This document shows, one piece after another, positions 6,101 through 61,755 of a stretch of DNA of 64,000 nucleotides; position 1 is the stretch's first letter, and every line of letters starts with the position of its first letter. The DNA is from a virus. The stretch lies in IMG/VR virus record IMGVR_UViG_3300044535_000472, positions 32,001 through 96,000 of that record, one strand, 5' to 3'. The translations under genes and the position numbers were made by a program. The notes under the pieces are model-generated. The model saw only the letters and a list, made by a program, of their open reading frames with translations, was not told where the DNA came from and made no database searches.

Positions 6101-9100
6101 CATCTTTAGTTAGACCATTATAAGATTGCTTTTCAAATAATTCAGCAGCACGATCTTGTTCATCTTGTGATGGCATTTGTCCTATACCAACATTAGCAAG
6201 TGCAAAGCGTTCTACATAATCAAGTAAGAAATCATTTTCTTCTTCGGTAAGATTATTTATTTTACCTGAGTTTTCTTTAGTGTAAGCAATAACTTCTTGA
6301 AGGCTTTTGATAAGCTCCATACCTTCTTCTGTTATTTCACTAGCTGCTACTACACCACTTTCATCTCTATTAATAGAAGCAATATCATTTATAATAGCAT
6401 ATAAGTCACCAACTGATTCTATTTGATCAATTATATCTTGACTTACATTTCTTTTTGCTAATTCATCCTTAATAACTTTAGCAGTTGCCTCTGCTATTTT
6501 AGGATCTTTTTTAGCTTCTAATTGTTTAATACTTTCATAAAGAGCAGCTTGGATCTCATAGTATTCTTTCTTTGGAACCTTTCTTGTATTTTTTGCAAGC
6601 CACGCTTCACGCTCATTTAAAAATTCTTCAGAAGTTCTATCTCCACCTATGCTTGGTCTCAACAATAATTGTTGCTCGTAGTCTGCTAGTGCTTTTAAAA
6701 ATACTCCAGGACGAGGCTTAGACTCATAAAAACTAGAACTTAAATCTCTATATTCACGTAATCTTTCGGCAATAAGTTTATCCTCACCTTCTTTAAGATT
6801 TCCAAATTCATCTACTAAGCTATATAAAAATCTTTTTTCTCTTAATGCTAGCTTACGTACTTCGGTTTCATCTTTAATTTCAAAACCTTGACGCTTCATG
6901 TCTTTCCACATTTGAAGCTTTTCATTAACAATATCAAGTCTTCTTTTAGCTTCGGCGCCTATATCATCTCTTTCAAATAACTCTTGTCTTTCATAGTACT
7001 CTGGTTTATACTTATTGTTAAAGTATAAACGTCGCATCTTATTATACTCTTGTCTAATGTTGTTATATTCTTTTTTATCATCATCATTTAAAGTACTATA
7101 GTATTTTAAACGAGCTTTTTCAAGTCTAAAAGTTTCTTGGGCATCCCACCATTCATACCCTACAAATTCATCTAAGAACTTTAATACTTTAAATTCATAA
7201 AGATTACCATCTGGATGTTTTTCAGCTATGCTATCTTCCATTAAGAAGGTATCTGCTTTACTAATTAAGTTTCTAGCATTAATACCAGCTTTTTTAAGTG
7301 CTGGTATAACTTGCGATGAAAACATAACTTTATGCATATGGATTTTTGATTCCATTTCCATATAGTTAGTTCTTAAATATTTAGCAAATGCTCCTATAAC
7401 AGGATCTTGATTGACTAAGTAACTTTCAAATAATGAATTCATTTGACTTGCAAAACCATTGTTTACAATATCACCCATTACCATTTTTTCAAAAGTCTCT
7501 TTAGTAAGCTTTATACTATTGTAAGCAGCCTCTTCTACAGCTAGTAATCTTCTAGTAGCTAATGGAGAGTTCTCTAAAAATGCTTTACGCTTTAACCAGC
7601 GCTCATCTATTTTTTTAGCTGTTGGTTCAACAAATTCCCAAAGTGTATCTGTTAAGTTTTCTCCATAGATGTATAGTGCAGATCTTTTACCCCTTTCGGA
7701 TGCATTTCTAATATCTGATACAAGACTATAAAGTTCGGATTTTTCCGTAATACCAAGATCTTCTAAATCTTTAATAACCTTTGTTGCTAAGTCAATATAT
7801 GAATCTAAATAGTCAGTAAGATTTTTAACACGATAAATACTATCTGGAGTTACACCAAGTTTTTTTATTTCCTCAATTCTATTAGTTATCTTATCAGCAA
7901 TCATGTACGTTTGCTGCAAGCTGTTAACAAAAGCAATAGCAAGTTTTCTATTCTCTTCTACCAAATCTTTAATATGCCTAACTCTATTAGACTCATAACT
8001 ACTAAGAGTAGATGTTATATATGCTAAATCTCTACTATCGTCATTTGTTAGTAGGAGAGCAAGTTCTTGGTACTCATCTTTAGTGGTAGCTCGGAGCTGA
8101 TCACTAAATAATTTATACATGGCATCTATATTCTTTTTAAGCTGCGCATGTGTTTTTTTGGCAGTCTCATCATCAACTGCATTATCCAATTCTTTGATGA
8201 AATCGTTAATCTCCTTAGCATACTGTACTCTATTATCTTCAATAGACTCTTTAGTAGCTATAGACGTATCTATATTAAACTTCTCAGATAGCATTTCATT
8301 TGCTAAATCCATAAAAGAAGTATTAACTCCTAGGTCACTAAGCTTAGGTCCAGCACCAAATAGTTTTCTAAAGAACTTTTTAATTTGATAAAGTATATTA
8401 GAAACCATTTCGCTAAATGAATTTGGCATTGGTGTATTAGAAAGCTGAGCCTGTCCAGCCATAGTTAATACATGCACAATAATCTCTTCTGAAAAGCCTT
8501 GTGGATCTCCTTCAAGTTCAGGATACTGTTTTAAAAAGTTTTCTTGTAGTCCTAGTTTACCTAACTCAGACCAAGCTTTTTTAGCTAATTTTTGAAACAG
8601 CTCTGGGTTTTCTTTTGCCAAGTACTTTACAAAAGGGTGAGCAAACTCGTGAAATAAAGTCTTTGTGCTTAATGCACCATCTACTACATATACTTTTCCA
8701 TTATAAACAAATGCAGGTTCATTATTATAAGGAGCCTTTGTATTTTTAGTAAGCTCAATAGCATCATTTACAGATATAAATTCTACTTCAGGTTCACCAA
8801 ATACATTTGTCATGTTCATGCTAGCAGCTAAGTTTTTTACAACTTGCATGGCTTGAACATGTTCGGCTTGCTCCTGTGTTAAAGTATCTGTTAATAAATC
8901 ATCTATTGCAGCATCCTCTTCACTACGAGTAAGACCTAGTAAATCATCAATAGCTTCAATCTCCCTAATAAACCACGCCCTATCTATACCACTTTCTTGT
9001 GAATTAGGTGAGTTAGGTTGTATCGGTAGCGGGGTTTTAAATACTTTTATGTAATACTTTTGAGGCCCGTTTCTTAAATCATTCTCCTCTTTTACAACAT

Positions 9101-17400: not shown

Positions 17401-20400
17401 TTAGTAGGATTAATTAAATCATCAATTTTTCTTACTACAATTATACTCTTTGGCTTATTCTCAGCAATCATTTTATCATTATGAAGCTTAATAGCTTCAA
17501 TACGATCAAACATTACTTTAGCTGGATTTGGAATCATTTTATTTAATGCCGCAATAATCTTAGACTTATTGTCAAAGTATATTCCTACATCTTGTAAAAA
17601 TTTAAGTCTGTTAAGACTATTATACTGTGATGCATAGTCATTATATATAGCATCAATGTCTAGGAAGTTATTGCCATTAATATCAGGTTTGATATACTTA
17701 GTTGTAGTTGTTTTAAACCTGTCATTCCAGTCACGCCCTACCTTAGCATCTGCCGTTGAAGCACCCCCTACTTTAGCACTATACTCAAACTCGGTTTTAA
17801 TAATATTACCCTCTGCATCTCTTTCAAGAACATTAGTTGTTCTATCAATAACTAAAGCAACAAGTGGAACACGAGTTTTATTAAATGCATCATTAAATTG
17901 TGTCCATAAGTTTTGGGCATTAGCCGTCATTTGCGTATCAGGATTGCCAAGTTTAATTAGCAATTCTTGTATAAATGGATAGTCTTCTTTTGAATCCTGT
18001 AAACGACTATACATTTCTTGTGGACTATTAGCACCTTGTAGTATTCTAGTAATACGGTTCCAAGCAATACCAAAATCCATTAGTGTATTAAAGCCTAAGT
18101 TGTTTAGAGCTTTATCACCATTAGACTCTAAAGCATGTAAACTTTTAATTAAATAGATAACACTTTCATTAGCAAGATCTAATAATGAAGCTTCATTACC
18201 TCTTCTGTCATGACCATCTCTACTTTTGAATTCACCAGTGTCTTCAAATAATAGTACTGCTTTTTCCGATGCTGTAACAAAATCTGAGAAGCGAGATTTC
18301 TTATTGTAATACGCAATAATACCTTTATCACTTTCAGTATCCCAGTTATCTGTTGCCCATACTAAAGCATCTTGTTGATTTAAAAGTCTTTGCTTTTCAC
18401 TATCTGTTGTAGCATTTGCTATTTGAATATCTAGTGCTTCAATAGCTTCTTCTATTTTAGTCTTAGCATATTGTAATGCTGCTTCTCTACCTTTTGGTAT
18501 GGCTAGGAGAGCCGTTGTGTAATATGCTTTATCGCCGGAACCATCTTCGGTTACACCAATTCTTAGGTTAACAAAGTCAGATACTAATGAGTCTAAGGTA
18601 TCTACTATTTCCATAGAGTTACGCATAGTAAGCAATGGTGTGCTATAGTCTTCATTTATAGCCTCAGCACCCTTATTCATTACTTGCTGTCTAATCTCTG
18701 CAGGTAAGTTTTGCTCAGAGTAGCTATACTCAGTTAATCTTCCAAACTGTAGCTTATTATAAATATCATTAGCATAAGTCAACGCTTCTTGGTTTAAAAC
18801 CATGTCGTTGTAACTCTGTACTCCAAATAACTCAAGGAAGAAATCAAGAATTTTCCTAAAGATACTACGCTGTGTAACATCTTTAATTTCCATTTTACCA
18901 CCAGACAACATATAAGCTCTAAACTCTTCAGCTAGGAACTCTTCAAGTTCAAGGTCACTTGCTTTAGCAAAGTCTCTATATACACCTTTGTAAGTTCTGA
19001 AGTTACCGCTACGCTTTCTAGTTTTTTCATAAAGCTCTTGTCTTTGAGCATCAGTCATAAACATGCGGGTAAACCCGTGCCATGCTTCGTGGTATAAGTC
19101 TGAGTAATTAGCACCTTCAAAAAGTATAATAGCATTTTGATACCACTTTGCAACTGATGTTGGGTCATAAGTATTAACCTCATTCATTAAGTTTTCAAGT
19201 GGAAACTTATCTTTAAATATGCTATTATCAAACCACTTCTTAGCTTCTTCAAGCTTAGCTTTTAATTCATTTGGGCTAAGTTGTGCAATGTCAAAACGTA
19301 AACCAAATTGTCTAACAAAATCTCTAGCTTGTTTTTTATTTCTAGAAAGCCCTTGGAATTCGTCATCCTCAAGGCTATCATTCTTAACAATCTCATTTAT
19401 AACTTCCCAAGCTGATGGCTTAGGTGCTTCCTCAACTTTTTCTGCTGGAGCTTTTTTACCTTTTTCTTTAGCAGCTGGTTTAGTAGTAGCAGACTTCTTA
19501 CCCTTATTTGTTTTAGTAGGTGCAGCCGCTTTTTTTCTTTCGTAGTTTAAGATCTTTTCAAAGTTTTCATCACTAGGATCAAACTTAATATGACCGTTAA
19601 GCCCTACTATTTGATTGTCTTTATTAAGTGGTATATTAATAAAGAAGTTATCTTTAATGTAATCTACATAGTTAACTTCATTCTTTGTCTTAATCCACTC
19701 GCCGTCCTTTTCGTTAATGTTAAAGTTATCAAATAGACCATTAATATCACCAAGTACATCTGACTTAATGTGAAGACGTCTTTTATATACTTTAAAATAG
19801 CCAGTACCCTTATCTCTTTTTCTTGCTATAGGATCTTCAACTATAGTATTTTCATCTAGCTTATCTTCATAAGCTTTATCAATTTGTTTATTTATAACAG
19901 TTTTACCATCTAGAAATCCTGATTTTAATTCTTTTTCAGTAACCTCAGTTCCTGATACATAAAACTTTTCAAAAAGGTGTTTGTATATAGCATCTTCTGC
20001 CTCAGCTTCTTTTTGTGCGTCAATGCTTTTTCCAGACAATTTTAATACCCGACCAAGACCTTTAACATAGTTGAACTCAATACCTGATTCAGGTAAGTAT
20101 ATATATTCAGATAGGTATTTGTTTTTTTCATCTACCGTAAGCTCTCGCTTTTCACCTAAGTCGTTTATTTCAAATACAGGTCTGGCAATTAATCGAGCAA
20201 GCTTTCTAGCTATATCACTAGACATTCCTCTACTAATAATAGGAATAGCACCAGTTACACCATTAATATAAAATACCTGGTTAGTTTTAGTTTGACCAGA
20301 TGCTCTATAATTTTTTTCAGGTACGATAACTGGCTTAAATACTTGATTGATAAAGTTGACTTTACTAATTGGAGTAAGTAAGTTATAGTCAACATACATT

Positions 20401-32844: not shown

Positions 32845-35439
32845 TTAAATTAATCCTCCAAACATATAAGGTAATGCACCTGTACCTGCTGCTTGTGCGT
32901 ATTGTGCAAATGCAGCTGCAGCATTTGGATCACCCATATTATACTGCTGTAACATTTTATTAAACATCTCAACCTCAGGATTTCCAGGATCTTGAATGTT
33001 CATACCCTTGCCGCCAAAAATAAGTTGTGCAGCTTTATCTGCAGAAACACCTTTTTTCATAAGATCATTTATCCTTTGTAATTGTGCTTCATACTCATCA
33101 AAAGATTTTTGACCTGTAAGATCTTTACCTTTATTAAAATATACTAAACCTGATGGCTCATCTATAAGAAACTTGTTACCAGACATTGCCTCAAGATTAG
33201 CTGATGTAGCTGCGTTAACGTCCATAGCATTTTTCAATGCGGTTGTTTGAGCAATAAACTCATTTTGAGTTTGCTTATCATTTTGAATCTTTTGCGTCAT
33301 TTCATCATAGTAACGCTTAGAATTTTCTAAGTTATATGCGTTAGTCTTAAACGCTAAATCTGCACGGGCTTTCTCAGCATTGTTATAAATCTCATTGTTA
33401 GCATTAAAGTATTTACCTAATGTATTAGCAATTTGATTTGATGCTTGAGCTTGTGTTGAAGCAGCAGCGGCGGCATATCCTTGTGGACTTCCGTAAACAC
33501 CAGCGGCACGTAGCGCACCTTGTGCTGTACCCTGTGTTTCAGCAACCTCACGACTTGGATCTAAGTATGCTTGGTTAAAGCTTACTGGAGCCATAGGGAA
33601 AGATGCAGGCATAACATTAGGTTGGTTTGCACCAATAGCTAAGTTAGCTACCATGTTATTTACATCTGGTCCCCAGTACTGTAGATCAGGTGTTGCTTGT
33701 GTATATGTAGGAGATTTCGGGGTTTCAACTGTGCTTTCAACATCTTTAACATCTTCAAAGCCTACTCCTTCTTCTTTAAGACCTTTTACAAATAAACCTT
33801 GTCCTGCAGTAGTATTACCAAAGATATCATCAACAGGAGATATTGCACGTCCTGCAGCATCTTGTTGGTCACTCATACCTCTTGGTACTAATGTAAAGTT
33901 CTCAAGTGTTTTTGCATATTCAGGATCATCAGCCGCAGCTTGAATACCCTTATAGGCAGCTTGGAACATTGCAATTTGATCATCATTAAAAATCTCATCA
34001 TCTTTAAAACCAATATCTTTAGCTGTTTTTCTATAAACATTGTTTTTATTTCCACCACCTTTATCCCAAGTTTTGTTTTTAGTAATAGGATCAATCTTAC
34101 CTTCTACTTCCGCTTTAGTAATTGCAAAGACTTGTTTTTGAGCTTTTAAAAAGTTATCCAAAACTTCTTCTGCACTTTTAGATTTTAAAGCAGCTTTTCT
34201 AGATGAGCTAAGACCTGAGGCATCAACTTGACGCTTGTACTCTTCATACATGCGATCAACAATACCTTTATTTGCTGGATCTTTTAATACACCTTCAACA
34301 TAAGAATAGTCATCAATGTATCCACCAAGACGTGGATCTGTAACATTTGATTTTGGCAATTGTTTAGATACAGTAGTTTTAGTTACTCTTTGGTAGCCAC
34401 CATCAGCTTTTACTACATATACCTCTTGCTTGTTTTTTGCTTTACCAAATTCTTCACGTACACGTTTTTGAAAATCTGTATCAGACTCATTTTCATTACG
34501 TGTAATAACCGTAGCATTCTCGCTAGGTTTAAATTTAGTTACAGTAGTAGTACGTCTTGAAGCTGGCTGTTGATTTCCAAATGGTGTATTAATTATGTTA
34601 CCATAACCATCTACAACATAGGTCATACCTGTAACTCTATCTGTGATAACACGTGGCTGATTTTGTGCAGTGCGCAATTGATTAATACGGCGTTGCATTC
34701 TACGCATTTTACCACTTTGAGCTTTTGGTAATCCACCATAACGAGCCTGTGGCATTTCACCTTCAGCCATTTCATTATCTTGCATAGCTTCCATTTGCTC
34801 ATTATCAGAACCAGCTTGCATAGGCATAAGAGCAGAAGGATCTGCACCTACACGCATTAAGTATGGTAATGATAAAGCTGGAATATCTTCAAAACCTTTG
34901 CTAGCTTCTTGAGCTAATGCAATTTGACCTAGTTTATCAATAGAGTTTTTAATATTTAATTCAGCAGTACTAACATCCATTTTAGTAGCATTAGGATCTG
35001 CCATTACTTGTCTAGCATCATTAATAACACTACCATATTTCTTAGCTGCGTCAGCATAAGAAATTTTAGAAGTTTTAGACTTACCCTTTTTAGCAGGGTA
35101 TCCAAAGTATTCTGCTAAGTCCTTTGGCATCTTTAGAAATTTACTAAAGATAAAAGAATCCTCGGTGGCACGCATAGGTACTCCACCATCAGCATGGGAA
35201 GGACCATTGATGTTAAAGTGTGCGGGTAAACCTCCTACATTAGGATCAAGAATGGTTTCGCCACCCTCTGCTTCAATATTAGGATTTTCATAATCTGGTT
35301 GTACAGATTTACGTGCTTCCGTTAAAGGCGCCCCTGCAGTATTGTGCACAGACCAAGGTGCAATTTGCATAGGAATATTGGGGTAGTGTGTACCACCCCT
35401 TTTCATTTGCGGAAGTTTCTTAATAGTAACTTTTCTCAT
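32845..35439 (-). CDS. virion cargo protein (864 aa), crAss-like cargo-protein-1-type candidate
   Basis: N-terminal MRKVTIKKLPQMKRGG; NIEAEGGE..GPSHADGGV..SFIFSK motif, recalled from the crAss-like cargo gene that follows the muzzle gene; Q/A/N-rich helical C-terminus. Confidence 0.55.
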   Translation of the reverse strand: MRKVTIKKLPQMKRGGTHYPNIPMQIAPWSVHNTAGAPLTEARKSVQPDYENPNIEAEGGETILDPNVGGLPAHFNINGPSHADGGVPMRATEDSFIFSKFLKMPKDLAEYFGYPAKKGKSKTSKISYADAAKKYGSVINDARQVMADPNATKMDVSTAELNIKNSIDKLGQIALAQEASKGFEDIPALSLPYLMRVGADPSALMPMQAGSDNEQMEAMQDNEMAEGEMPQARYGGLPKAQSGKMRRMQRRINQLRTAQNQPRVITDRVTGMTYVVDGYGNIINTPFGNQQPASRRTTTVTKFKPSENATVITRNENESDTDFQKRVREEFGKAKNKQEVYVVKADGGYQRVTKTTVSKQLPKSNVTDPRLGGYIDDYSYVEGVLKDPANKGIVDRMYEEYKRQVDASGLSSSRKAALKSKSAEEVLDNFLKAQKQVFAITKAEVEGKIDPITKNKTWDKGGGNKNNVYRKTAKDIGFKDDEIFNDDQIAMFQAAYKGIQAAADDPEYAKTLENFTLVPRGMSDQQDAAGRAISPVDDIFGNTTAGQGLFVKGLKEEGVGFEDVKDVESTVETPKSPTYTQATPDLQYWGPDVNNMVANLAIGANQPNVMPASFPMAPVSFNQAYLDPSREVAETQGTAQGALRAAGVYGSPQGYAAAAASTQAQASNQIANTLGKYFNANNEIYNNAEKARADLAFKTNAYNLENSKRYYDEMTQKIQNDKQTQNEFIAQTTALKNAMDVNAATSANLEAMSGNKFLIDEPSGLVYFNKGKDLTGQKSFDEYEAQLQRINDLMKKGVSADKAAQLIFGGKGMNIQDPGNPEVEMFNKMLQQYNMGDPNAAAAFAQYAQAAGTGALPYMFGGLI

Positions 35440-35450
35440 CCTATAGATAT

Positions 35451-38126
35451 TTATTCTAGTTCATAACCAGCATTAATCAATGCTTGAATTTCCTCATCGC
35501 TTAAGTAGTAAGTACCACCTTGTTGGTATTGACCACCCATTTCATAAGAACCACCAGATTGACTTCGTGGTCCTATATACTCATCTCTATCAAATCTATT
35601 AGCTACTCTATTATATCTATTTTCTAAACGTTCTTGTTGTCTTTCTTCTCTAGGAGATATACCTTGATTATCGTTATACCAAGTTTTTAAAGACATGTCT
35701 TTTTGTGCTAATCTATCAAGTTTATTACCAATTTCTGTTAAACGATTTGTAGCCTTATCATTTCTAATATCGGATCTATAATTTTTAGCATTATAACCAG
35801 CAGGATTAAACTGTCTTGTCATAATAGGCGCTTCTACATTATTTATCTTAGATGAATTAAAAGTTGGTCCTTGTATAGTATCCCAACGAGATGCTCTATT
35901 ACGTGCTTTATCAATAAAGCTTTGATCATTAGGAGTAACTAGACTACCATCGTTATTATATTGCACATTACCTTGTCCAGGTTGATTAGCTCGGATTCTC
36001 ATCTTATATCTATTAGGACCTTGTGTAATATCATAACGGTTAATGTTATTATCTTTAAACCAAGTATTATACTGAGCATTTGCACCAGGACCTGTAACAG
36101 GTGTACCAGGTACCGTAGTTCCAGCAGCACCGGCAGTTCCTTGTCCTTGACCCTGCATATTAATCATTTGCTGAGCCATAGCCTGATTAAATAATGCATT
36201 GATGTTACGTTTTGTTCTAAAACCAAACAAAGGTGTTTTAGTATAACCAGCTGCCATTGCTTGTAATAAACTTTGCATTGCTGGATTAAACTGATAACCA
36301 CCTGCACCGCCTCCACCTGTATTAGTATTGGTGTTAGTATTTGTACTATTTCCACCTGCAGCAGGAGTAGTAGGTTTTGCAGGAGATCCGTAATAGTCAG
36401 CAGTAATTTTATTTGTACTAACTGGATACTTTTTATTTAAAGCATCCATAGCTTTAGCACGCTTGTCTTCAATTGCTTGTAATGTTGCTGCATCTGCGTT
36501 GTTCAACATTGCATTATCATACTCAGCTTCTGAATCTGCAATAAGAGTTTCTAACTCAGTATCATACTTAGTATCTCTTCCTCCAGCTACAGTATTTGTA
36601 TTTAAATTTGTATAACCCAATTGATTTGGATTATATCCATAATCATATGCCGTTTGTCTTGCTTGATTTACAAAAGCATTTATTTTAGTTTGATCCCCGC
36701 TAGCAATAAGTTTTCCTAACTCGGTATTATACCAAGTTTCAAAATCAGCTTCTGTTGTTTTAGCTGGTCTACCAATCTGGGCTCTAGGAATACCGCCATA
36801 TTTTGCAGTAGTTGGTTGTTGTGATTTATTTATCATATCTTGTAGCTTTTGCATATTTTGATAAAATTCAGCATTAGTTTGTTTAGCTTTAGCAATAGGT
36901 TTTGAAAATGCATCTTGTGCAGAACTGTATAATCCTTGCATTAACTGAGAATTAGCTTGCTTAGCTTCATTAGGATCATACATTCCTGTGTAATAAGGGT
37001 TAAGAGGATTTTGACCATCAAACCCAAACTCTTGAAAATCACTACCACTCATACCCATACCCATTTGAGCCATAGGCATTTCTTGCATCATTTCTTCTGG
37101 CATTTCTTGTTGAGCTTGCTCTTGACCTGCACCTTGAAGTTGCTGAACCACAGCATCTACAATTTGCATAGCTTGCTCTTCAGGGATACCCATCTCAATT
37201 AACTTTTGATCAACCTCTTCAGGAGTAGCCCCTTGCTGTAAAGCTTGAGCTACCATTTGCATTAGTTGTTCTTGAGAGGTTTGCTCAGAAGTTTGTTGTG
37301 GAGCTTGCATTCCCATTTGAGCAAATCCCATTTCTTCAGATTCGCTAAGTTGACCTTTACGCTTATTACCTAAAGCTTTTTGAATTACAGCATTAGCTGA
37401 CATATCTCTTAGATAATTCAAAAAGTTATTAGGCTTCTCATAATACTCATAGTTCTCAGTATTATCAGTAAGCTTTTCTGGTGTAAAAAAACCACCACCC
37501 TTTTGAGCAGTTGGTATTCCATAGTGACTACTATCCATTTTTATTGCATTTTGTATAGGAGATCCTGCCCCCATTTCATATTTAGGAAGATCTCCCATTT
37601 GTCCAAGTTGGTCCGTTGAACCGCCACCTTGAAATGCCATATAAAGCTGGCCGCCTTTTTTTGCTGTTGCCATAGGATTTGTGTATGCGCTATTTTGGTA
37701 GCCAGGTTCATATACAGGAACTTTTTCATTAGGGAAATCTGTAAACTGCCCAGTTGAAGTAAGCCACGGATAAGATCCATATTTTTTCATTGATGAAGTT
37801 TGATAAAGATTAAAAGGGTCATTAAGATAATCCCTTTGAGTCTTCTTCATTCTATTTTGATCTTGGTAGTTAAGAGCCATTGTTGCTCCCGACACAAGAC
37901 CATGTACAGTATCTCTTAGATAAGGATGATTATCAATAAATCCGCTCATGCCACCCTTAGGTTTTTTAAGCTTTATATTGAGATTGTTATGGAGATTGTC
38001 TAAATTAATATCACCAGGTTGACTCAATTTAGCATAAGGATCATTAAGCTCAATAGTATTTGTGGAGTTATAGTCATCCCCAAGAACATCTTGCCACGGA
38101 CCGCCTGTGTAATACTTTTTTATCAT
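35451..38126 (-). CDS. low-complexity Q/M/G/N-rich virion cargo protein (891 aa) with many xQxGG motifs
   Basis: Motifs YYTGG, AKKGG, FQGGG, AQKGGG, AQMG, AKYGG, and the terminal SQSGG-YEMGG-YQQGG. Confidence 0.6.
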   Translation of the reverse strand: MIKKYYTGGPWQDVLGDDYNSTNTIELNDPYAKLSQPGDINLDNLHNNLNIKLKKPKGGMSGFIDNHPYLRDTVHGLVSGATMALNYQDQNRMKKTQRDYLNDPFNLYQTSSMKKYGSYPWLTSTGQFTDFPNEKVPVYEPGYQNSAYTNPMATAKKGGQLYMAFQGGGSTDQLGQMGDLPKYEMGAGSPIQNAIKMDSSHYGIPTAQKGGGFFTPEKLTDNTENYEYYEKPNNFLNYLRDMSANAVIQKALGNKRKGQLSESEEMGFAQMGMQAPQQTSEQTSQEQLMQMVAQALQQGATPEEVDQKLIEMGIPEEQAMQIVDAVVQQLQGAGQEQAQQEMPEEMMQEMPMAQMGMGMSGSDFQEFGFDGQNPLNPYYTGMYDPNEAKQANSQLMQGLYSSAQDAFSKPIAKAKQTNAEFYQNMQKLQDMINKSQQPTTAKYGGIPRAQIGRPAKTTEADFETWYNTELGKLIASGDQTKINAFVNQARQTAYDYGYNPNQLGYTNLNTNTVAGGRDTKYDTELETLIADSEAEYDNAMLNNADAATLQAIEDKRAKAMDALNKKYPVSTNKITADYYGSPAKPTTPAAGGNSTNTNTNTNTGGGGAGGYQFNPAMQSLLQAMAAGYTKTPLFGFRTKRNINALFNQAMAQQMINMQGQGQGTAGAAGTTVPGTPVTGPGANAQYNTWFKDNNINRYDITQGPNRYKMRIRANQPGQGNVQYNNDGSLVTPNDQSFIDKARNRASRWDTIQGPTFNSSKINNVEAPIMTRQFNPAGYNAKNYRSDIRNDKATNRLTEIGNKLDRLAQKDMSLKTWYNDNQGISPREERQQERLENRYNRVANRFDRDEYIGPRSQSGGSYEMGGQYQQGGTYYLSDEEIQALINAGYELE

Positions 38127-38194
38127 ACCGCTAATATAGTCATTATAATATATAAGATACTGATTTCTTTAATAAATTCCTAGCTATCAAAGAT

Positions 38195-38212
38195 TTAACT
38201 TTTTAAGTTTAG
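38195..38212. repeat. second copy of the TAAACTT-N3-AAGTTTA element; 38197-38212 is the exact reverse complement of 32821-32836
   Basis: AACTTTTTAAGTTTAG (38197-38212) versus CTAAACTTAAAAAGTT (32821-32836); it overlaps the stop codon of the 652-aa gene. Confidence 0.75.
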
Positions 38213-40167
38213 GTTTTTACAAATACATACTTACCATTGGTATCTGTAAGAATCTGGAAACCTTTATCTTTACGTGAACCTCCTTTCTTAAAACCAGCAG
38301 GATTTGGATTATTTATATCTATTTCCCATTGTGGCTCAGTTAAGTCAAAATTTCCCCATATTCTACCAGAACCTTTTATTTCTTGCGGAAAACTATAGCC
38401 TTGAATATTACGGTTTAACTCATCAATATGTCTAGGGTATCTTCTTAAAGATGGGGATAAGCTTTTATCATAATTTTCTAAAAAGGTTCCTATACCTTTC
38501 TCATAGATACTAGGATAGTCTACACCAAATTTTCCTATTTTTCTAATACTTGTACGATCATACATATCTGTAAAAGCTGATTCAGGTATTCCTGAAAGAT
38601 CTACAACACCAACTTCACCTGTTGCAGGGTCAAACATAAAGTTGTTTGGATTTACCCAGTCTACAGATATGTCATTATCTTGTAAAAATTTCAATCTTTT
38701 TGAAGTATTTGCTATTGACTGTGGTGTTAGTTTACTTCTAAATGTAGATAAACCTCCAGGACTTTCTAAGAATCGCATTAGAGGTTGACCTGAAACTTTA
38801 TTTAACACTTGAACAGCAACACCTGGTGTACTTATTTTTGAAACTTGTGTTCTAAAATCAGGAAATACATGAGAAACCTTAGGTAATCCTAAATATGAAT
38901 CTGCAGAAGATTGTCCTAATAGACCAAGTTTATCAAAAGTTTCTTGCGTTTCCCAAGGCATTAAGTTACCAACTTTTAAAACTTCAGTTTCACTACCTAC
39001 AATTGGTAGCACTTTTCCAAAATAACCAGAAGCCGCATTTTGAAATGAGTTAACGTCAATAGGATAGCGAAGTTTATTCACTGCCTTTTGTAAATACTTA
39101 TTTTGCAAATTAGCTATAACATCTATATCAAACGTATTTAGATGATTTCGTGCATTTTTAACTTTTTCTATATACGGTTGTAGATCAATAGTTTCTCCAT
39201 CAAACTTAGCCATTCTCGCATTTTGCAACTGATACTCATGAAAATTAAAATCATCTAATGCATCTTTGTACTCAGGTGAGCTTTTAACTTGATAAACTTC
39301 ATCTTGAAGCTGCTTACTCCAACGTCTTACATCCCACTCTTTAATGTTTTTAGGATTTGTAAACATACCATTACCATACACATAGTCTAAAAACTTTTGG
39401 GTTTTTTCTTTATCGTATAGTGAACTCTGTTTACTAGAAAGCTTTGGTTCAAAAAGTATATTCTTTACTTCTCCCGTTCTTGTAATAACACTTTTTCCAG
39501 CACTCTTTAATAAGGGTGAAGCAGCCCTTGCAACAGGAACTGCTGCGGCTAAATCTAAATAATTTCCTAGTGCTTCTCCACTATATCTTGGATCAAATAA
39601 ACCTAATGTATTTGTTAAACCATATTCTAACGGATTATCAACAAATTTTTCTACTTGTCTACCACCAGCATTTATTACAAAAGCAGGTATACCAGCAGCC
39701 ATATCTACCACTGAAGTCATTGGTGATCCTACACCATACCCTTCATAAGGATTATGCATTCCTAGTGATCCACTTGGAATATCGTAACCTCTGTTAACAG
39801 CAGCTATAGTTTCCATAGGATGGCTTACAGCTGTCCAGGCACGTCTTGCAAATTTTTCAGCATCGCTTCTAGTATCTGCCGTAAGTACATCTTGACGTTT
39901 TAATGCTTCTGGTAAAGCATCATACGCTTCCTGCGCTTTAGCTTCTTCTATAATCTGTTTACCACTTTTATCTTTCCATGTGTCAGGAGCTTTAGGCATA
40001 TTAGTAGGTCTAGTAGATTCTGCTACAACAGGTTGCGTTTTAACTTCCCTTATATCCCCTACAAGATTTTGTGTGGGTGCTACTTTCATTTCACGTCTAA
40101 GGAAATCTCTCCAGTCTGGAATATTAGTTTGTGCCTTAGGTAATGATTTTATTTTAACTTTTCTCAT
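38209..40167 (-). CDS. cargo protein with a C-terminal protein-kinase-like domain (652 aa)
   Basis: Gly-loop ASGYFGKV, beta3 Lys VLKV, catalytic loop SVDWVNPNNFMF and DFG-equivalent GVVDLS; N-terminal MRKVKIKSLPKAQ. Confidence 0.7.
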   Translation of the reverse strand: MRKVKIKSLPKAQTNIPDWRDFLRREMKVAPTQNLVGDIREVKTQPVVAESTRPTNMPKAPDTWKDKSGKQIIEEAKAQEAYDALPEALKRQDVLTADTRSDAEKFARRAWTAVSHPMETIAAVNRGYDIPSGSLGMHNPYEGYGVGSPMTSVVDMAAGIPAFVINAGGRQVEKFVDNPLEYGLTNTLGLFDPRYSGEALGNYLDLAAAVPVARAASPLLKSAGKSVITRTGEVKNILFEPKLSSKQSSLYDKEKTQKFLDYVYGNGMFTNPKNIKEWDVRRWSKQLQDEVYQVKSSPEYKDALDDFNFHEYQLQNARMAKFDGETIDLQPYIEKVKNARNHLNTFDIDVIANLQNKYLQKAVNKLRYPIDVNSFQNAASGYFGKVLPIVGSETEVLKVGNLMPWETQETFDKLGLLGQSSADSYLGLPKVSHVFPDFRTQVSKISTPGVAVQVLNKVSGQPLMRFLESPGGLSTFRSKLTPQSIANTSKRLKFLQDNDISVDWVNPNNFMFDPATGEVGVVDLSGIPESAFTDMYDRTSIRKIGKFGVDYPSIYEKGIGTFLENYDKSLSPSLRRYPRHIDELNRNIQGYSFPQEIKGSGRIWGNFDLTEPQWEIDINNPNPAGFKKGGSRKDKGFQILTDTNGKYVFVKT

Positions 40168-40173
40168 TCTAAG

Positions 40174-43100
40174 TTATTTTAAATTGTCCAATACGCTTCT
40201 TGTATATTTATTTCTTTCACCCAATGGGACTAGCACCCCATCTTTTTTCACATTTCGTATATAGTTCTTAAGCATCTTTTCATAAGCTTGTTTTTTTACA
40301 GTAGCATCTTTTGTTGTAGAATACTGATTTGCTGCTCCAAAAAAGTTAGGATATTCTTCTATAGGAAGACCATTATAAACAAAGTCTAATGCAAGTACTT
40401 TTAAATCAGGATGTAACTTATCAAAAGAACCTTTTCCAAATTTTGTTTCATACTGCTCTAATGTGCGATCAAGATGTTCTTCTGCATCATTACGCATTAA
40501 CGCAATAGCCTCATCTTTAGTAAGCCCTTTAGAATATCTGTTAGTTTTAACATCATCATCTGTTAGCTTATGACCATAACCTATTGTATCATTACCACCT
40601 TCTTCAGATGCATACTGATAATATCTTCCATCTTTTAAACCTTTATTAACACCATTTTCTTGTTGCATCAATCGTGTATAGTAATCTTCAGGTATTTTAA
40701 ATCTCACAGGTTTTGGTTTATCAAAGGCATTCATCACTTGATTATATTGATCTAATAAAGTTGGTGTTGGTTGTGGGAGAATTCCCATCTTTTGCATTTG
40801 ATCAAAAACATCTGGTGTTTCTGGTGCGGGCTTATAACCATATTGCTGCATCATATTAATAATGCCACCTCCATCTTGTTTTCTTTCTATATAGCGCATT
40901 CTTTGCAGCTCAGGATCAAATACTAAGTTTTGATTTTTACCTCCCCAGTTACGGTCATTGCTCAACATAAAGTCCTTATACTCCATCCAACCGGTATCTC
41001 CAGGATGGGATTCTCCCGGTATATGAGACTTTAACCAAACACCTGTATCAGGATTAGTACTAAAGCCATGATACATATTATCATAGGGATCTGGCTGCCA
41101 GTGTGGATTCATTTCTAAAGCTTGCTCAAAATTCTCAGGTTTTCCTAAAGCATTCCACATGTTATAGTGATCATATTGTCTAGGGTTACCATATTGCCAC
41201 TTGGAGTCAGGTCTTCTATTTTCAGGCGCTGTTTCACTGTAACATAAAAAATCTTCATAGTCATCCGGCAAGCCACCACCAGTTTGAGCTTGATCTAAAT
41301 ATAACTCGAAATCACCTTCATCAAACATTTCATCATCTACAATAATATCTTGAAATGCTCTATTTCTATTTGCAAGTATTTCTTCTTCTGTAGATCCTCC
41401 AGCTTGTTTTACCTTTTTAAATCTTTTATCATTAGGATCAAATGGTGCAGCATCATTTGTATTCCAAATTCTACCATACCATGTATTGTAATATGCATCT
41501 GATGGAGTACCATCGGGTTTAAGATCTATGTTTTGATAATAGAAATCACGACCCTTATTTAATAACTGACGTCTATCATTTACTGAAAGTTTATTAATAG
41601 CGGGTGCATATTGTTGCCACAATTTATCTAGCTCTGCCAACTTTGCCGCTACGGCTTTTTTATCAGCCTTAGCTCCATAATAGTCAATATTAAAACTACC
41701 TCTATTAGGTAATCCAGATTGACCTATGCTTTTTAAATATTGATCTAATTGATATATTCTAGGATCTCTACCAGTATTATATATAAAATCAACAGCTTCA
41801 GTTTGCTCTGCTGGAGTAGTATAGTAAGGTTGTGCGATTGGTAAAACATTAGTCATCATCCAATTTATAGCATCATCCCTTTTAGGATTAGTACCTAGTA
41901 AAGGATTTCCATAATCAGTTAAACCTGTACCATCACGTCTTCCTCTTGCATATTCGTAATCTGCAATTTTACCTATACCTGTTTTTATATCACCAATTAG
42001 TTGAGCCTTTGGTAATGATTTTATTTTTATTTGTTTAAGACTTGGTATAGATATATCACCACCTTTTTGCTTTCTAGTATATCTAGCGCTACCCGTTCCC
42101 ATATGAGCTCTAGATGTATTTTGCCATATCTCAGGAGTAACTCTATCAGTCCTAATTACATCAAATATTTTTTCTCCTGGTTGACCTTTAAAAGCATAAT
42201 GTGAAAATGGATCTAACTCTCCAAATGCGTTTTGTGCAAAACCACGATAAACTTTTGGATCTAAAAACATTTCTTTAAGAACTACTTTTAACGGAGCAAG
42301 CTCAGGCTTAATATCATAGTAAGCTCTCATAAAATCATAGTAAGACATTTTAGCATAATCTAATAAGTTAGGGCTATCTTTAAACACAAGATCATCTTCT
42401 CCAGGTGTCCAACTCATAGAACGGCTTTTGTCATAATCAGCTGCCAGTACCCCTCTTCTGTTTTTGGGATTTGTTGCTTTTGCCAAAGCATCTTTCTTAT
42501 TTCTAAATTTTCTTTGCATTGGCCACGCATCGGTCTGCGCTTTTCTATATACATCATCAAGACCTTGAGTTAACCTATGTTGTTTCATAGGATCTTTTGT
42601 AACATATACAAAATCTCTAATAGATGTTGGTAATCTTTTTTGATAGTCATTTGCTACAATACCTGTTCCATATGGGGAACCCCTAAATCCATAGTTAATT
42701 GGATATTCATTTGCTGATATCCAATCTAGTCTATTTGATGATGAGAAATCTGTAGGACGTCTTAAAGTAACAGAATAGCCATCGCCATAAGTATAACCCT
42801 CGGCATTAGGTTTAGAGTTTGATACGTATAGTGCATGTTCCCCTTTCTTTAAACCATATCTACCATATCCAGTTTCTCCTGGTATGTGGGATGCCATATA
42901 CTCTGCAGCAGCTTGAGGATTTGTTTCATAGTTAATCCCCTGCGCTTCTAACTCTTTAATTAATTTACTCCAAGCATTTTCTTCACCGAGCCATCTACCA
43001 CTAAGAGTTTCTTTAACTTTAGGCCAATTGGTACTAACACCTCTTACAAAAGTGTTATGCCTATTTAACAAACCTCTAAAAGTCATGTCAGTAAGCATAT

Positions 43101-44445
43101 CTGATTTTGCAACTCTTTGTATATCAGGTATATTATATCCATACTGTTTTGCCCAATGCTGTAAATTTTGAAGATCTTTAAATCTTCTTCCTGTGCTTCC
43201 AATTGCTCCAATATTTTTTACCGCATTTAAATCTGAAGATAAATTTTTAGCTCCTAGAAAGTTTAACGCATTGAGACCTCCTTCAAATGCTACATCTCTC
43301 CAGTCTCCTTCTCCAGCATTATATCTAGATACAGCTTGTCTAAAGTCAGATTCTGGATTTAAAAAATTATAAGTACCTACAGCTTGAAATGCTGGATTAA
43401 CGACATTACCCAGTGTAACACCAGTACCTAATAACTCCAAACCTAATGTACTAGCAATAGCTGGAGCAGCTGCATATAATCCTACTGCAGCATCTAAAGG
43501 TCCAACTGTTGTATTTGTTGTACCAAGCATGTTTGCTTTCTGCTGAGAATCTTGCTTATGTTGTTGATAAGCAGAAAATTTTCTACTAAACTCGGTACTA
43601 TTAATAGCTTTATCGGCCTGATCTAAAATGTATTTTTTATCTTTTAACTTAGAATTTAATTTCTTTTTTTCTTTTTCATTTTTTGAAAAAGATATATCAA
43701 AAGTCAGTTGACCTATTTCGTCTTCTATTTTTTGTTTATTGTATGATGCATTTAAATAATCAGTTATGTCTGCATCACTTATTTCACTATTAGTAATATC
43801 TTCAGGACTCCATAAACTCATTCCTCCTATTTTTGGACCTGTACCAAAGCGACTTGTATATGCTGCTTTAGCATAACCAGTTTCTGGATTTACACTTTCT
43901 AAATCTTCTTGACTAGGTGTAGTAAGATGTTTTGCAAAACGTTCTTTTTTCTCCTGCTCTAAAACTTCTTTAGATGGTTGCTTATAATTAGCATCCATCC
44001 AGTTTGCAATCTCTTTACCTCTTTCTAAATTATTCTTATTCTGAGCTGCTGTATTATATGCCCAATTTGCATTTCTATATTCATCTACTGAGTTCCATCC
44101 TGCTACCTGTGCTCTTCTGTTAAGCTCCATATTCTCAGCAGGACTTAAATTAACATCATAGCTAGAATTAAATTGACCTGTAGTTTGGGCTTTTGGTAAA
44201 GTCTTTATTTTAACTCTTTTAAGATTTGGCATAGAGGTATTACCACCATAAGCCATCATAGGTATTTCATATACGGCAGTACCAGGAAATGTATAGTTAC
44301 CTCCAGGCTGCATCATTTTAGTATTACCTAAATTATCAATACCCAATACAGGGTATGGTACACCCTTCATTGTTATATCACCACTTGGAATAATAGTATC
44401 CTCACCAGGATATTTCCATTGTCCATATTTACTTACTTTAGCCAT
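40174..44445 (-). CDS. modular cargo polyprotein (1423 aa): ART-like, GH108-like and GH24/T4-lysozyme-like domains separated by xxxGG linkers
   Basis: TFVRGVS..ALYVSNS..AEGY; YEYARG..DGTGLTDYG..DFIYNTG..RDFYY..WYGRI; QENG..DTIGYGH..LDFVYN. Confidence 0.7.
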   Translation of the reverse strand: MAKVSKYGQWKYPGEDTIIPSGDITMKGVPYPVLGIDNLGNTKMMQPGGNYTFPGTAVYEIPMMAYGGNTSMPNLKRVKIKTLPKAQTTGQFNSSYDVNLSPAENMELNRRAQVAGWNSVDEYRNANWAYNTAAQNKNNLERGKEIANWMDANYKQPSKEVLEQEKKERFAKHLTTPSQEDLESVNPETGYAKAAYTSRFGTGPKIGGMSLWSPEDITNSEISDADITDYLNASYNKQKIEDEIGQLTFDISFSKNEKEKKKLNSKLKDKKYILDQADKAINSTEFSRKFSAYQQHKQDSQQKANMLGTTNTTVGPLDAAVGLYAAAPAIASTLGLELLGTGVTLGNVVNPAFQAVGTYNFLNPESDFRQAVSRYNAGEGDWRDVAFEGGLNALNFLGAKNLSSDLNAVKNIGAIGSTGRRFKDLQNLQHWAKQYGYNIPDIQRVAKSDMLTDMTFRGLLNRHNTFVRGVSTNWPKVKETLSGRWLGEENAWSKLIKELEAQGINYETNPQAAAEYMASHIPGETGYGRYGLKKGEHALYVSNSKPNAEGYTYGDGYSVTLRRPTDFSSSNRLDWISANEYPINYGFRGSPYGTGIVANDYQKRLPTSIRDFVYVTKDPMKQHRLTQGLDDVYRKAQTDAWPMQRKFRNKKDALAKATNPKNRRGVLAADYDKSRSMSWTPGEDDLVFKDSPNLLDYAKMSYYDFMRAYYDIKPELAPLKVVLKEMFLDPKVYRGFAQNAFGELDPFSHYAFKGQPGEKIFDVIRTDRVTPEIWQNTSRAHMGTGSARYTRKQKGGDISIPSLKQIKIKSLPKAQLIGDIKTGIGKIADYEYARGRRDGTGLTDYGNPLLGTNPKRDDAINWMMTNVLPIAQPYYTTPAEQTEAVDFIYNTGRDPRIYQLDQYLKSIGQSGLPNRGSFNIDYYGAKADKKAVAAKLAELDKLWQQYAPAINKLSVNDRRQLLNKGRDFYYQNIDLKPDGTPSDAYYNTWYGRIWNTNDAAPFDPNDKRFKKVKQAGGSTEEEILANRNRAFQDIIVDDEMFDEGDFELYLDQAQTGGGLPDDYEDFLCYSETAPENRRPDSKWQYGNPRQYDHYNMWNALGKPENFEQALEMNPHWQPDPYDNMYHGFSTNPDTGVWLKSHIPGESHPGDTGWMEYKDFMLSNDRNWGGKNQNLVFDPELQRMRYIERKQDGGGIINMMQQYGYKPAPETPDVFDQMQKMGILPQPTPTLLDQYNQVMNAFDKPKPVRFKIPEDYYTRLMQQENGVNKGLKDGRYYQYASEEGGNDTIGYGHKLTDDDVKTNRYSKGLTKDEAIALMRNDAEEHLDRTLEQYETKFGKGSFDKLHPDLKVLALDFVYNGLPIEEYPNFFGAANQYSTTKDATVKKQAYEKMLKNYIRNVKKDGVLVPLGERNKYTRSVLDNLK

Positions 44446-60903: not shown

Positions 60904-61149
60904 TTAGCATTTCCATTTTCTAAGTGACTTATTAATCCTTGAGTTAGGATCATTAGCCGTTTTAGCACTAGTAAGCTTTTTCTTCATCCCAGACATTCTT
61001 GCGCAAAAGCTTTTCTTTCTAGGCCCACCCTCTGGTTGAGGTGCCTTAATATCATGACCTGCTGCTTTTAAAGATGCACGTCCTTTAGCGTTAAGTCCTC
61101 CACTTGGAGACTTACCTTCTTTTCTTTGCCATGCTGGACTTTTTGCCAT
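60904..61149 (-). CDS. small basic protein, 81 aa (DUF6321-like, recalled from aquatic phages)
   Basis: AWQRKEGK..GGLNAKGRAS..RKKSFCARM..DPNSRINKSLRKWKC. Confidence 0.75.
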   Translation of the reverse strand: MAKSPAWQRKEGKSPSGGLNAKGRASLKAAGHDIKAPQPEGGPRKKSFCARMSGMKKKLTSAKTANDPNSRINKSLRKWKC

Positions 61150-61447: not shown

Positions 61448-61573
61448 TTATTTTTTACAACCACAACCAGATTTCTTGGAAGCCGTAGCACCACCTTTTT
61501 TATAGGTGGTACCATTGGGCTTACCATATGAAATCATTTTCTTTTTTTGCTCTGGTGTTAGTAGAGGGTTCAT
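61448..61573 (-). CDS. small basic protein, 41 aa (MNPLLTPEQKKKMISYGKPNGTTYKKGGATASKKSGCGCKK)
   Basis: Manually translated; start overlaps the stop of 61570..61755. Confidence 0.6.
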   Translation of the reverse strand: MNPLLTPEQKKKMISYGKPNGTTYKKGGATASKKSGCGCKK

Positions 61574-61755
61574 CCTTTACGCTTTGGGCTTACTTCAGCA
61601 GATTTATTTCCACCGCCTGAGCGACCTTTAGCAACTTTTTGAACTTGTGCAGCAGCGTTTCCGCCACCAACACGTCCACCAGGAGTCTTTTGTACCATAA
61701 CGGAAGCATTAGGATTTTTAACACCGCCGGTCATCATTTTTTTAACCTTTTTCAT
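61570..61755 (-). CDS. small Gly/Lys-rich protein, 61 aa
   Basis: In the ORF track; MKKVKKMMTGG...; A-rich leader. Confidence 0.65.
   Translation of the reverse strand: MKKVKKMMTGGVKNPNASVMVQKTPGGRVGGGNAAAQVQKVAKGRSGGGNKSAEVSPKRKG

Follow-up and report, generated by a model that had tools for sequence, protein, structure and literature searches.

A conserved Gly-Gly-linked peptide tag at module boundaries in the predicted cargo proteins of a crassvirus

We analyzed a window of 64,000 nucleotides, bases 32001 to 96000 of the 122,614-base phage genome in IMG/VR record IMGVR_UViG_3300044535_000472, and describe a short conserved peptide, the tag, that recurs in four adjacent genes at window positions 32845 to 44445. 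The genome was rated complete by CheckV, and Pfam matches to Crass_capsid (PF23898, 2.9e-32) and to the tail ring proteins CrAss_Ring_1 (PF24228, 5e-16) and CrAss_Ring_2 (PF25702, 1.9e-23) identify it, on sequence evidence, as that of an uncultured member of the Crassvirales. The late genes all lie on the minus strand: the capsid gene, genes for small proteins, the tail and ring genes, and then the gene for a 1781-amino-acid (aa) protein (phrog_37948, virion structural protein) in the muzzle position. This last gene is followed by the four tagged genes, encoding proteins of 1423, 652, 891, and 864 aa, and then by giant genes for proteins of 1494, 2298, 3322, and 2742 aa, again all on the minus strand. 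In Bacteroides phage crAss001, the cargo proteins C1 (gp45) and C2 (gp46) sit between the muzzle protein and the RNA polymerase (RNAP)-associated giants (PMC10172136). The four tagged genes hold the same position, between a muzzle-like gene and the RNAP-associated giants, and their products are probably cargo that this crAss-like phage packs and injects.

The first gene (40174 to 44445; all coordinates of the four genes and their tags are on the minus strand) encodes the 1423-aa polyvalent protein, P0001 in our collection. It comprises a 68-aa N-terminal domain, tag 1 (GG-NTSMPNL-KRVKIKT-LPKAQ-TTG, 44176 to 44247), a helical/hydrophobic region, an ART-like region, tag 2 (GG-DISIPSL-KQIKIKS-LPKAQ-LIG, 41992 to 42063), a helical module, three short Gly-Gly (GG) joints (KQAGG, 41395 to 41409; AQTGGG, 41272 to 41289; KQDGGG, 40864 to 40881), and a lysozyme-like C-terminal domain with a weak Phage_lysozyme match (phrog_4290). 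The 652-aa gene (38209 to 40167) is a cassette with an N-terminal tag, MRKVKIKSLPKAQT (40126 to 40167), a carrier module common to many relatives, and the tail KKGG..GFQILTDTNGKYVFVKT. The 891-aa protein (35451 to 38126) showed, by motif scan, only the short LP/IPxAQ form of the tag without the KIK strand (YGIPTAQKGGG; AKYGG-IPRAQ-IG, 36771 to 36806) and ends in the run EMGG-QYQQGG plus a tail. The 864-aa protein (32845 to 35439), the putative C1 (gp45-like) cargo protein, opens with MRKVTIKKLPQMKRGG (35392 to 35439), a variant (..KKLPQMKRGG) that is a family-wide N-terminal signature; it carries an internal short tag, ARYGG-LPKAQ-SG (34711 to 34746), and closes with PYMFGG-LI (32848 to 32871), and 34 collected homologues likewise end in GG-LI. 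The 652-, 891-, and 864-aa proteins have no family in Pfam or PHROGs.

We scanned the entire genome for the tag, covering every open reading frame (ORF) of 50 aa or more. The pattern [RK].[VI].IK.LP had four matches, all in three of the four genes, compared with 0.0086 expected by composition and a mean of 0.0085 (maximum, 1) in 2,000 within-protein shuffles; [LIM]P[KRQ]AQ had five matches, confined to the four genes (0.11 expected; shuffle maximum, 2). The four long copies are where a preliminary description of this sequence had placed them, at the N termini of the 652- and 864-aa proteins and twice after GG in the 1423-aa protein, and its statement that ring and tail proteins lack the motif also held: these have no tag and hardly any GG, and the motif is confined to the cargo-position genes. 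Its claim that shorter GG forms punctuate all four genes stood in part. GG is two to three times denser there (9.7 per 1,000 aa, versus 4.4 in other ORFs and 3.4 in five neighboring giant genes), but glycine is enriched too (8.2% versus 6.1%) and the short-xxxGG context pattern was set post hoc, which makes the short forms a weaker observation than the long copies. Small, very basic ORFs (22 to 26% Lys plus Arg) at 61570 to 61755, 60904 to 61149, and 989 to 1555, which adjoin the capsid and lysis regions, bear several xxGG sites, as that description had noted of small basic proteins; one begins MKKVKKMMTGG, like a degenerate leader plus GG.

Tag copies diverge at synonymous sites, so it is the peptide that is conserved and not just duplicated DNA. 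A strict DNA pattern for the tag, run against 185,579 bacterial and archaeal genomes, gave 12 matches, none in a cargo-like frame or context, which indicates that the tag is not a host motif. Two trivial origins were rejected. An internal translation start at the tag is ruled out, as an upstream Met codon is present at tag 1 only and tag 2 has ATA, and an A-rich start-codon context cannot account for the N-terminal motif, since the identical peptide is found internally and at C termini.

We assembled homologues of the 652-aa protein, 114 homologues of the 864-aa protein, and 120 of the 1423-aa protein, and searched a tag profile against 1.84 billion cluster representatives (E up to 0.001). This profile found 66 clusters, mostly with two to six copies per protein, in proteins of up to 3028 aa, and the copies followed a consistent positional grammar. 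Their core is a basic amphipathic strand (basic-V/I-basic-I-K/N-x-L-P), usually followed by KAQ-x-G, and in about 280 relatives it lies either at the true N terminus or 1 to 8 residues after GG. In the profile-search clusters, 51 internal copies had GG no more than 14 aa upstream and about 10, mostly spurious, did not; all 28 C-terminal copies followed GG, and 12 copies were N-terminal. The C-terminal form is a separate variant, GG..KRVKINxLPxNWKTK-stop, with LPxNWKTK kept in 28 clusters. Internal tags come in three lengths, short (GG-x-LPKAQ-x-G), medium (GG-xx-KVKIKSLPKAQ), and long (GG-DISxPxL-KRVKIKSLPKAQ), to which 91, 81, and 45 of 240 unique internal sites belong, with 23 unclassed. In a search for cultured relatives, megablast of the region against 50,697 phage records found no match, tblastn of the 1423-aa protein matched at the domain level only, and tblastn of a 38-aa tag segment gave no usable match.

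The N-terminal form, M-x(0-4)-[KR]V[KR]I[KT]K[LVI]P, opens 99 of 127 collected proteins and nearly all C1 homologues (80 IMG/VR contigs), in which the tag is retained down to about 25% identity. P0064 and P0065 are tagged at both ends. Some C1 homologues (P0110 to P0112 and P0115; L030, L079, L082, and L098) start with tandem tags, e.g., MNKRRVKIKKLPNNKRKVRIIKNP. One C1 lineage (L035, L036, L040, and L046) lacks the tag and starts MYGNN.., and at all four of these loci the upstream cargo neighbor ends in a C-terminal tag; such a neighbor occurs in only 4 of about 70 other loci, where C1 is tagged.

The same module can stand behind different forms of the tag. The carrier module of the 652-aa protein follows Met plus tag in P0002, P0006, P0007, P0009, and P0010, GG plus the KIK tag in P0008, and GG plus a short LPKAD or LPQAQ in P0014 and P0013. 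The module after tag 1 in P0001 (aa 75 to 166) matches aa 1 to 88 of P0011, i.e., the N terminus of that protein, and aa 1056 to 1195 of P0001, the stretch that starts at AQTGGG and ends at KQDGGG, match aa 43 to 182 of P0008, where the corresponding EKTGG is followed by the KIK tag. Judged from these sequences, the tag belongs to the downstream module and GG closes the preceding one. The 68-aa module that opens P0001 (GQWKYPG..YEIPMMAYGG, 44242 to 44445, aa 1 to 68) itself ends in GG. We found it in 112 collected proteins, 55 of which carry it N-terminally and 57 internally; 27 of 27 clear internal copies begin 6 aa after GG. Its end is always ..PMxxxGG, after which comes a long, medium, or short tag, or none. 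In many crassviruses this 62- to 68-aa module (consensus GQWxYPG..ITMxGVPYPV..YxFPG..YEIPM-xxx-GG) opens the first cargo protein, and further copies lie far within other cargo proteins.

The preliminary description had supposed that effectors are swapped at these motifs, and a comparison of module order with contig L011, which is 93 to 97% identical to the window in the flanking genes, bore this out. In the first cargo gene, nucleotide homology to L011 breaks off at 44241, just past AYGG, and picks up again at 41406, just past KQAGG (LPKAQAGG in L011); the two phages carry different modules in the intervening stretch. The only island of similarity inside this swapped stretch is tag 2 (75 nucleotides, 77%). 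The 652-aa gene is a clean indel, window positions 40169 to 38190 being absent from L011. Identity to the 891-aa orthologue is about 98% as far as ..AKYGG and drops to about 25% directly behind it, and three of four mosaic edges between the two proteins fall at GG. Modules are therefore exchanged at tags between near-identical phages. Across 161 proteins, 17.8% of 3,996 homology break-ends lay within 5 aa of GG, compared with 6.4% (standard deviation, 0.4) of random positions, and 4.0% versus 0.8% lay at strong tags, although these break-ends are not phylogenetically independent.

Three further observations concern these modules. In L011, the module replacing the ART-like region (L011:4754-5872) carries HExxH (..AHERSHW..), has no Pfam family, and is a candidate zincin-like peptidase within a cargo polyprotein. 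A tail of the form KKGG..GF(Q/K)ILTD(T/A)NGKYVFV(K/N)T-stop (window 38212 to 38289; also P0006 to P0008, P0010, and P0011) closes proteins with differing central domains and is an alternative to the NWKTK tail. The 652-aa gene is in frame with the 1423-aa gene, from which it is separated by TAA and two codons, and stop-codon read-through would fuse both.

We modeled the 864-aa protein with AlphaFold from 77 sequences (mean predicted local distance difference test score [pLDDT], 70.7). Its N-terminal tag (aa 1 to 38; the leader itself below 50), internal tag (within aa 207 to 246, a linker between two folded parts), and C-terminal GG tail were all low confidence, and aa 41 to 204 were folded. 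In a model of aa 760 to 1423 of P0001, the four tag GGs fell in blocks with pLDDT of 28 to 53 (tag 2, about 28 to 37; KQAGG, about 33; AQTGGG, the end of a low-pLDDT stretch; KQDGGG, about 38), and a GG in the lysozyme-like domain fell in a block at 77. Over the two models, GGs inside domains scored 72 to 84 and tag GGs scored low. The P0001 model is supportive rather than strong evidence that the tags lie in disordered linkers, as low-confidence residues make up 36% of it. Together with the homology break-ends, the two models agree with the earlier proposal that the tags fall at module boundaries.

The folded domain of the 864-aa protein (aa 41 to 209, 34813 to 35319) may resemble the portal-bound domain of crAss001 C1 (gp45; Bayfield et al. 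2023, PMC10172136; PDB 7QOG chain M). The top Foldseek match in the PDB was 7qog_M, a weak one (E = 0.26, probability 0.77), and VIA-align of model residues 41 to 209 with 7qog_M residues 425 to 552 gave a Z of 6.2, a root mean square deviation of 4.6, and 99 of 126 residues aligned at 22% identity, which is below the comfort zone of the tool. By sequence, phmmer against the PDB found no homology to gp45 at E up to 1, Pfam gave nothing relevant at E up to 10, and BLASTP against gp45 matched only at E above 4. The two proteins share gene position and a basic Lys/Ile start (MAKKKIKRRGKMP in gp45, looser than the tag), and gp45 has several aromatic-x-x-GG sites. Two of them flank segments ordered in the virion: the tail-barrel segment (214 to 245) begins 4 aa after FSAYGG, and the portal segment (425 to 552) begins at AFGG. 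In contrast, gp45 carries its portal-binding domain at 425 to 552 rather than near the start, lacks LPKAQ, and has no described leader or junction tag.

The preliminary description had suggested a capsid-loading tag or a GG/X maturation-protease site. We tentatively favor a tag that stays uncut: a docking or handling peptide, hinged by Gly-Gly, that doubles as a recombination seam. We find this explanation plausible while giving it less than even weight. The tag core would be the ancestral N-terminal leader of C1, the gp45 family, which in this lineage would additionally have been placed ahead of other cargo modules. GG would serve as the hinge, and the exposed basic amphipathic strand with its Leu-Pro would be the docking or handling peptide. 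Its partner might be a site that recurs within the particle, on the portal, in the tail-barrel lumen, or on packaged DNA, and this binding would load each module and align the modules for ejection. Being conserved and located in a predicted disordered linker, the tag could also serve as the exchange site, a place where recombination swaps, adds, or deletes modules without breaking folds. Placement at N termini, internally, and at C termini, along with double-ended and tandem tags, fits a docking motif, and the tags at either or both ends, together with conserved tails after the last GG, suggest that the strand is functional in its own right and that GG is a hinge. We infer from this both the binding of a partner in the virion and the absence of cleavage.

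Several points weigh against this reading. In the AlphaFold models the tag is not docked onto the protein that bears it, and we have identified no binding partner for it. We infer the virion residence of the four proteins from synteny and the weak fold match, and crAss001 is only distantly related, with GG sites that may not correspond to those here. The C-terminal tag on the neighbor of the tagless C1 may be a compensation, and it comes from a single lineage. The remaining objections are those that favor cutting, in particular that a protease acting behind GG would itself generate the observed rule of placement at the N terminus or directly after GG.

The strongest alternative, which we nonetheless consider rather unlikely, is that GG is a maturation cleavage site cut, in the particle or after ejection, by an unrecognized viral or host protease. 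It is with the same reserve that we regard its corollary, that modules would be released with the tag as a new N terminus while N-terminal leaders and C-terminal tails were trimmed. Not only do the KIK tags begin at Met1 or right after GG, but the 68-aa module, itself untagged, obeys the same rule in its 27 internal copies. GG occurs in the last 22 aa of 50% of 282 cargo proteins (13% for internal windows) and in the first 40 aa of 45% (21% for internal windows), and the residues before it are nonrandom, as at a protease site ([KM][KAFM][KAQ][YQKN]GG). The xxGG sites of the small basic proteins near the capsid gene recall adenovirus core precursors, and processing has been predicted for polyvalent proteins (PMC5512222). 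Two of the RNAP-associated giants contain a bare HExxH motif (LFHEFAHPF, 8649 to 8663, aa 926 of the 2742-aa protein; LYHEAWHGF, 19077 to 19091, aa 770 of the 3322-aa protein), as does the module swapped into L011; the regions around those in the giants gave DUF4932 in one case, at an E of 0.0013, below its cutoff, and otherwise nothing.

Several results speak against cleavage. Six-frame searches of the genome gave no match to the T4 gp21-type S77 (PF03420), HK97-type S78 (PF04586), adenain C5 (PF00770), Ulp1-like C48 (PF02902), C39 (PF03412), or MPTase-PolyVal (PF18818) family, the last leaving only the bare HExxH motifs, and a Pfam scan of the 93 other ORFs and the giants found no protease of these T4 gp21, HK97, adenain, Ulp1/C48, C39, and MPTase-PolyVal families. 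The sole peptidase-like gene found in the genome encodes an early-region protein with DUF2201_N (a putative metallopeptidase, HELLH), PhageMetallopep, and a VWA-like domain (G000:C1:21585-22787, plus strand), outside the window. The KIK strand is equally conserved at true N termini, where there is nothing upstream to remove. Of 140 cargo proteins with GG in their last 22 aa, only 2 end at GG itself; the rest keep diverse and conserved tails after the last GG (LI, FPFIL, FPFMFY, YIVGLL, and WLNKYK), and these tails together with the true N-terminal tags make a cleavage site alone an insufficient explanation. In crAss001, the one relative with a solved structure, GG427-428 of gp45 is built inside an intact modeled chain. 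We reexamined published matrix-assisted laser desorption/ionization lists for crAss001 gel bands (PMC6235969 supplement) by peptide-mass fingerprinting, which placed gp47 (46 matched peaks) and gp50 (49) in band 3 and gp49 (46) and gp44 (19) in band 4, counting bands as listed; this fits these proteins running at full length in virions, although none of them carries tags. By the same method gp45 was not identified in bands 5 to 9, which has no bearing on whether C1 is cut.

A more specific version of docking, which we judge unlikely, takes the tag as a virion-internal address code, read at N termini, joints, and C termini, that pins modules at recurring portal or tail-barrel lumen sites and so sets effector choice and exit order; in a variant of this reading, an unrecognized protease fold may cut after Gly-Gly and free the tagged modules. 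If such a code exists, any enzyme that gained the tag by recombination would become an injected effector, and the tag would offer a means to load proteins of choice into phage particles.

The tag might instead act only after ejection, as a cationic amphipathic strand that steers or anchors modules at the host envelope or DNA, with no role in loading; this seems improbable to us. The strand does alternate basic and hydrophobic residues, and it stands at the extreme N terminus of C1, whose N-terminal part in crAss001 has been placed in the tail barrel and proposed to exit first, forming a channel (PMC10172136). Many tagged modules are cell-wall enzymes: among the extremely mosaic homologues of the 1423-aa protein we found glucosaminidase, SLT, YkuD, LysM, and lysozyme domains, with matches to PF01832, PF01464, PF03734, PF00959, and PF01510, along with ART-PolyVal (PF18760) and SET (PF00856). 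Yet modules with probable cytoplasmic targets (putative kinase-like and ART-like) likewise stand behind the tag, and the C-terminal copies obey the same rule. About as improbable in our estimate is that the tag has no binding function and is a tolerated flexible linker, conserved by recent copying and acting as a mere recombination seam. Swaps and indels at tags, the excess of break-ends (2.8-fold within 5 aa of GG, 5-fold for strong tags), and the disordered stretches of the models would all suit it. Against it, the C1 N-terminal residues are kept down to about 25% identity, copies differ at synonymous sites, the specific C-terminal variant LPxNWKTK is retained in 28 clusters, and a pure linker would not hold V/I, I, L, and P in register.

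Crassviruses are among the most abundant phages known, and the crAss001 structure leaves open how several megadaltons of protein are chosen, packed, and ejected. A portable tag that marks the starts of cargo modules would be a concrete handle on this question, since it predicts cargo proteins from sequence alone, and it would explain how crassviruses shuffle injected enzymes so quickly. In the literature searched, we found no description of the tag or of a crassvirus cargo linker. Such a tag, conserved at both leaders and junctions and obeying this grammar, is apparently undescribed; crassvirus cargo and polyvalent proteins are themselves already known kinds (PMC10172136, PMC5512222).

The polyvalent proteins described by Iyer, Burroughs, Anand, de Souza, and Aravind in 2017 (PMC5512222) are comparable to the 1423-aa protein and its homologues: large late-gene products in which enzyme domains of unrelated families are strung together, with packaging and injection as their predicted fate. 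For those proteins, processing by an MPTase domain was proposed; this zincin-like domain is frequent there but not obligatory and was undetected here, and no junction peptide is named in that work (the word "linker" occurs 0 times). In adenovirus (adenain) and African swine fever virus (ASFV; pS273R), GG-X processing likewise involves Gly-Gly with a biased P4-P3 context in virion-internal and small basic proteins, whereas here no C5/C48-like protease was found, a conserved peptide lies downstream of GG, and the sites are known from sequence only. Many N termini in this family read leader-xxGG, of which that of the 864-aa protein is an example, as in double-glycine leaders cut by C39 peptidases, but no C39 domain was found, the leader consensus is different, and tags also follow GG. 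The T4 capsid-targeting sequence is, like the tag, a short N-terminal peptide common to otherwise unrelated packed proteins; it is unlike the tag in being N-terminal only and in being removed by the gp21 prohead protease after LxE, a protease of the S77 type that this phage lacks, and the present tag is also internal and C-terminal and unrelated in sequence. With no protease of these kinds detected, the tag lacks a defining feature of the T4, adenain/ASFV, and C39 systems. The pretoxin motifs of polymorphic toxins, such as VENN of CdiA, offer a different likeness, a short peptide that borders constant and variable parts while recombination swaps the variable domains. Here the proteins are probable phage virion cargo rather than secreted bacterial toxins, each has several seams, and the sequences are unrelated; we noticed no immunity genes and no small genes between the cargo genes, immunity function not having been specifically examined. 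By analogy, the tag appears to combine the workings of a T4-type targeting sequence with those of a polymorphic-toxin boundary motif.

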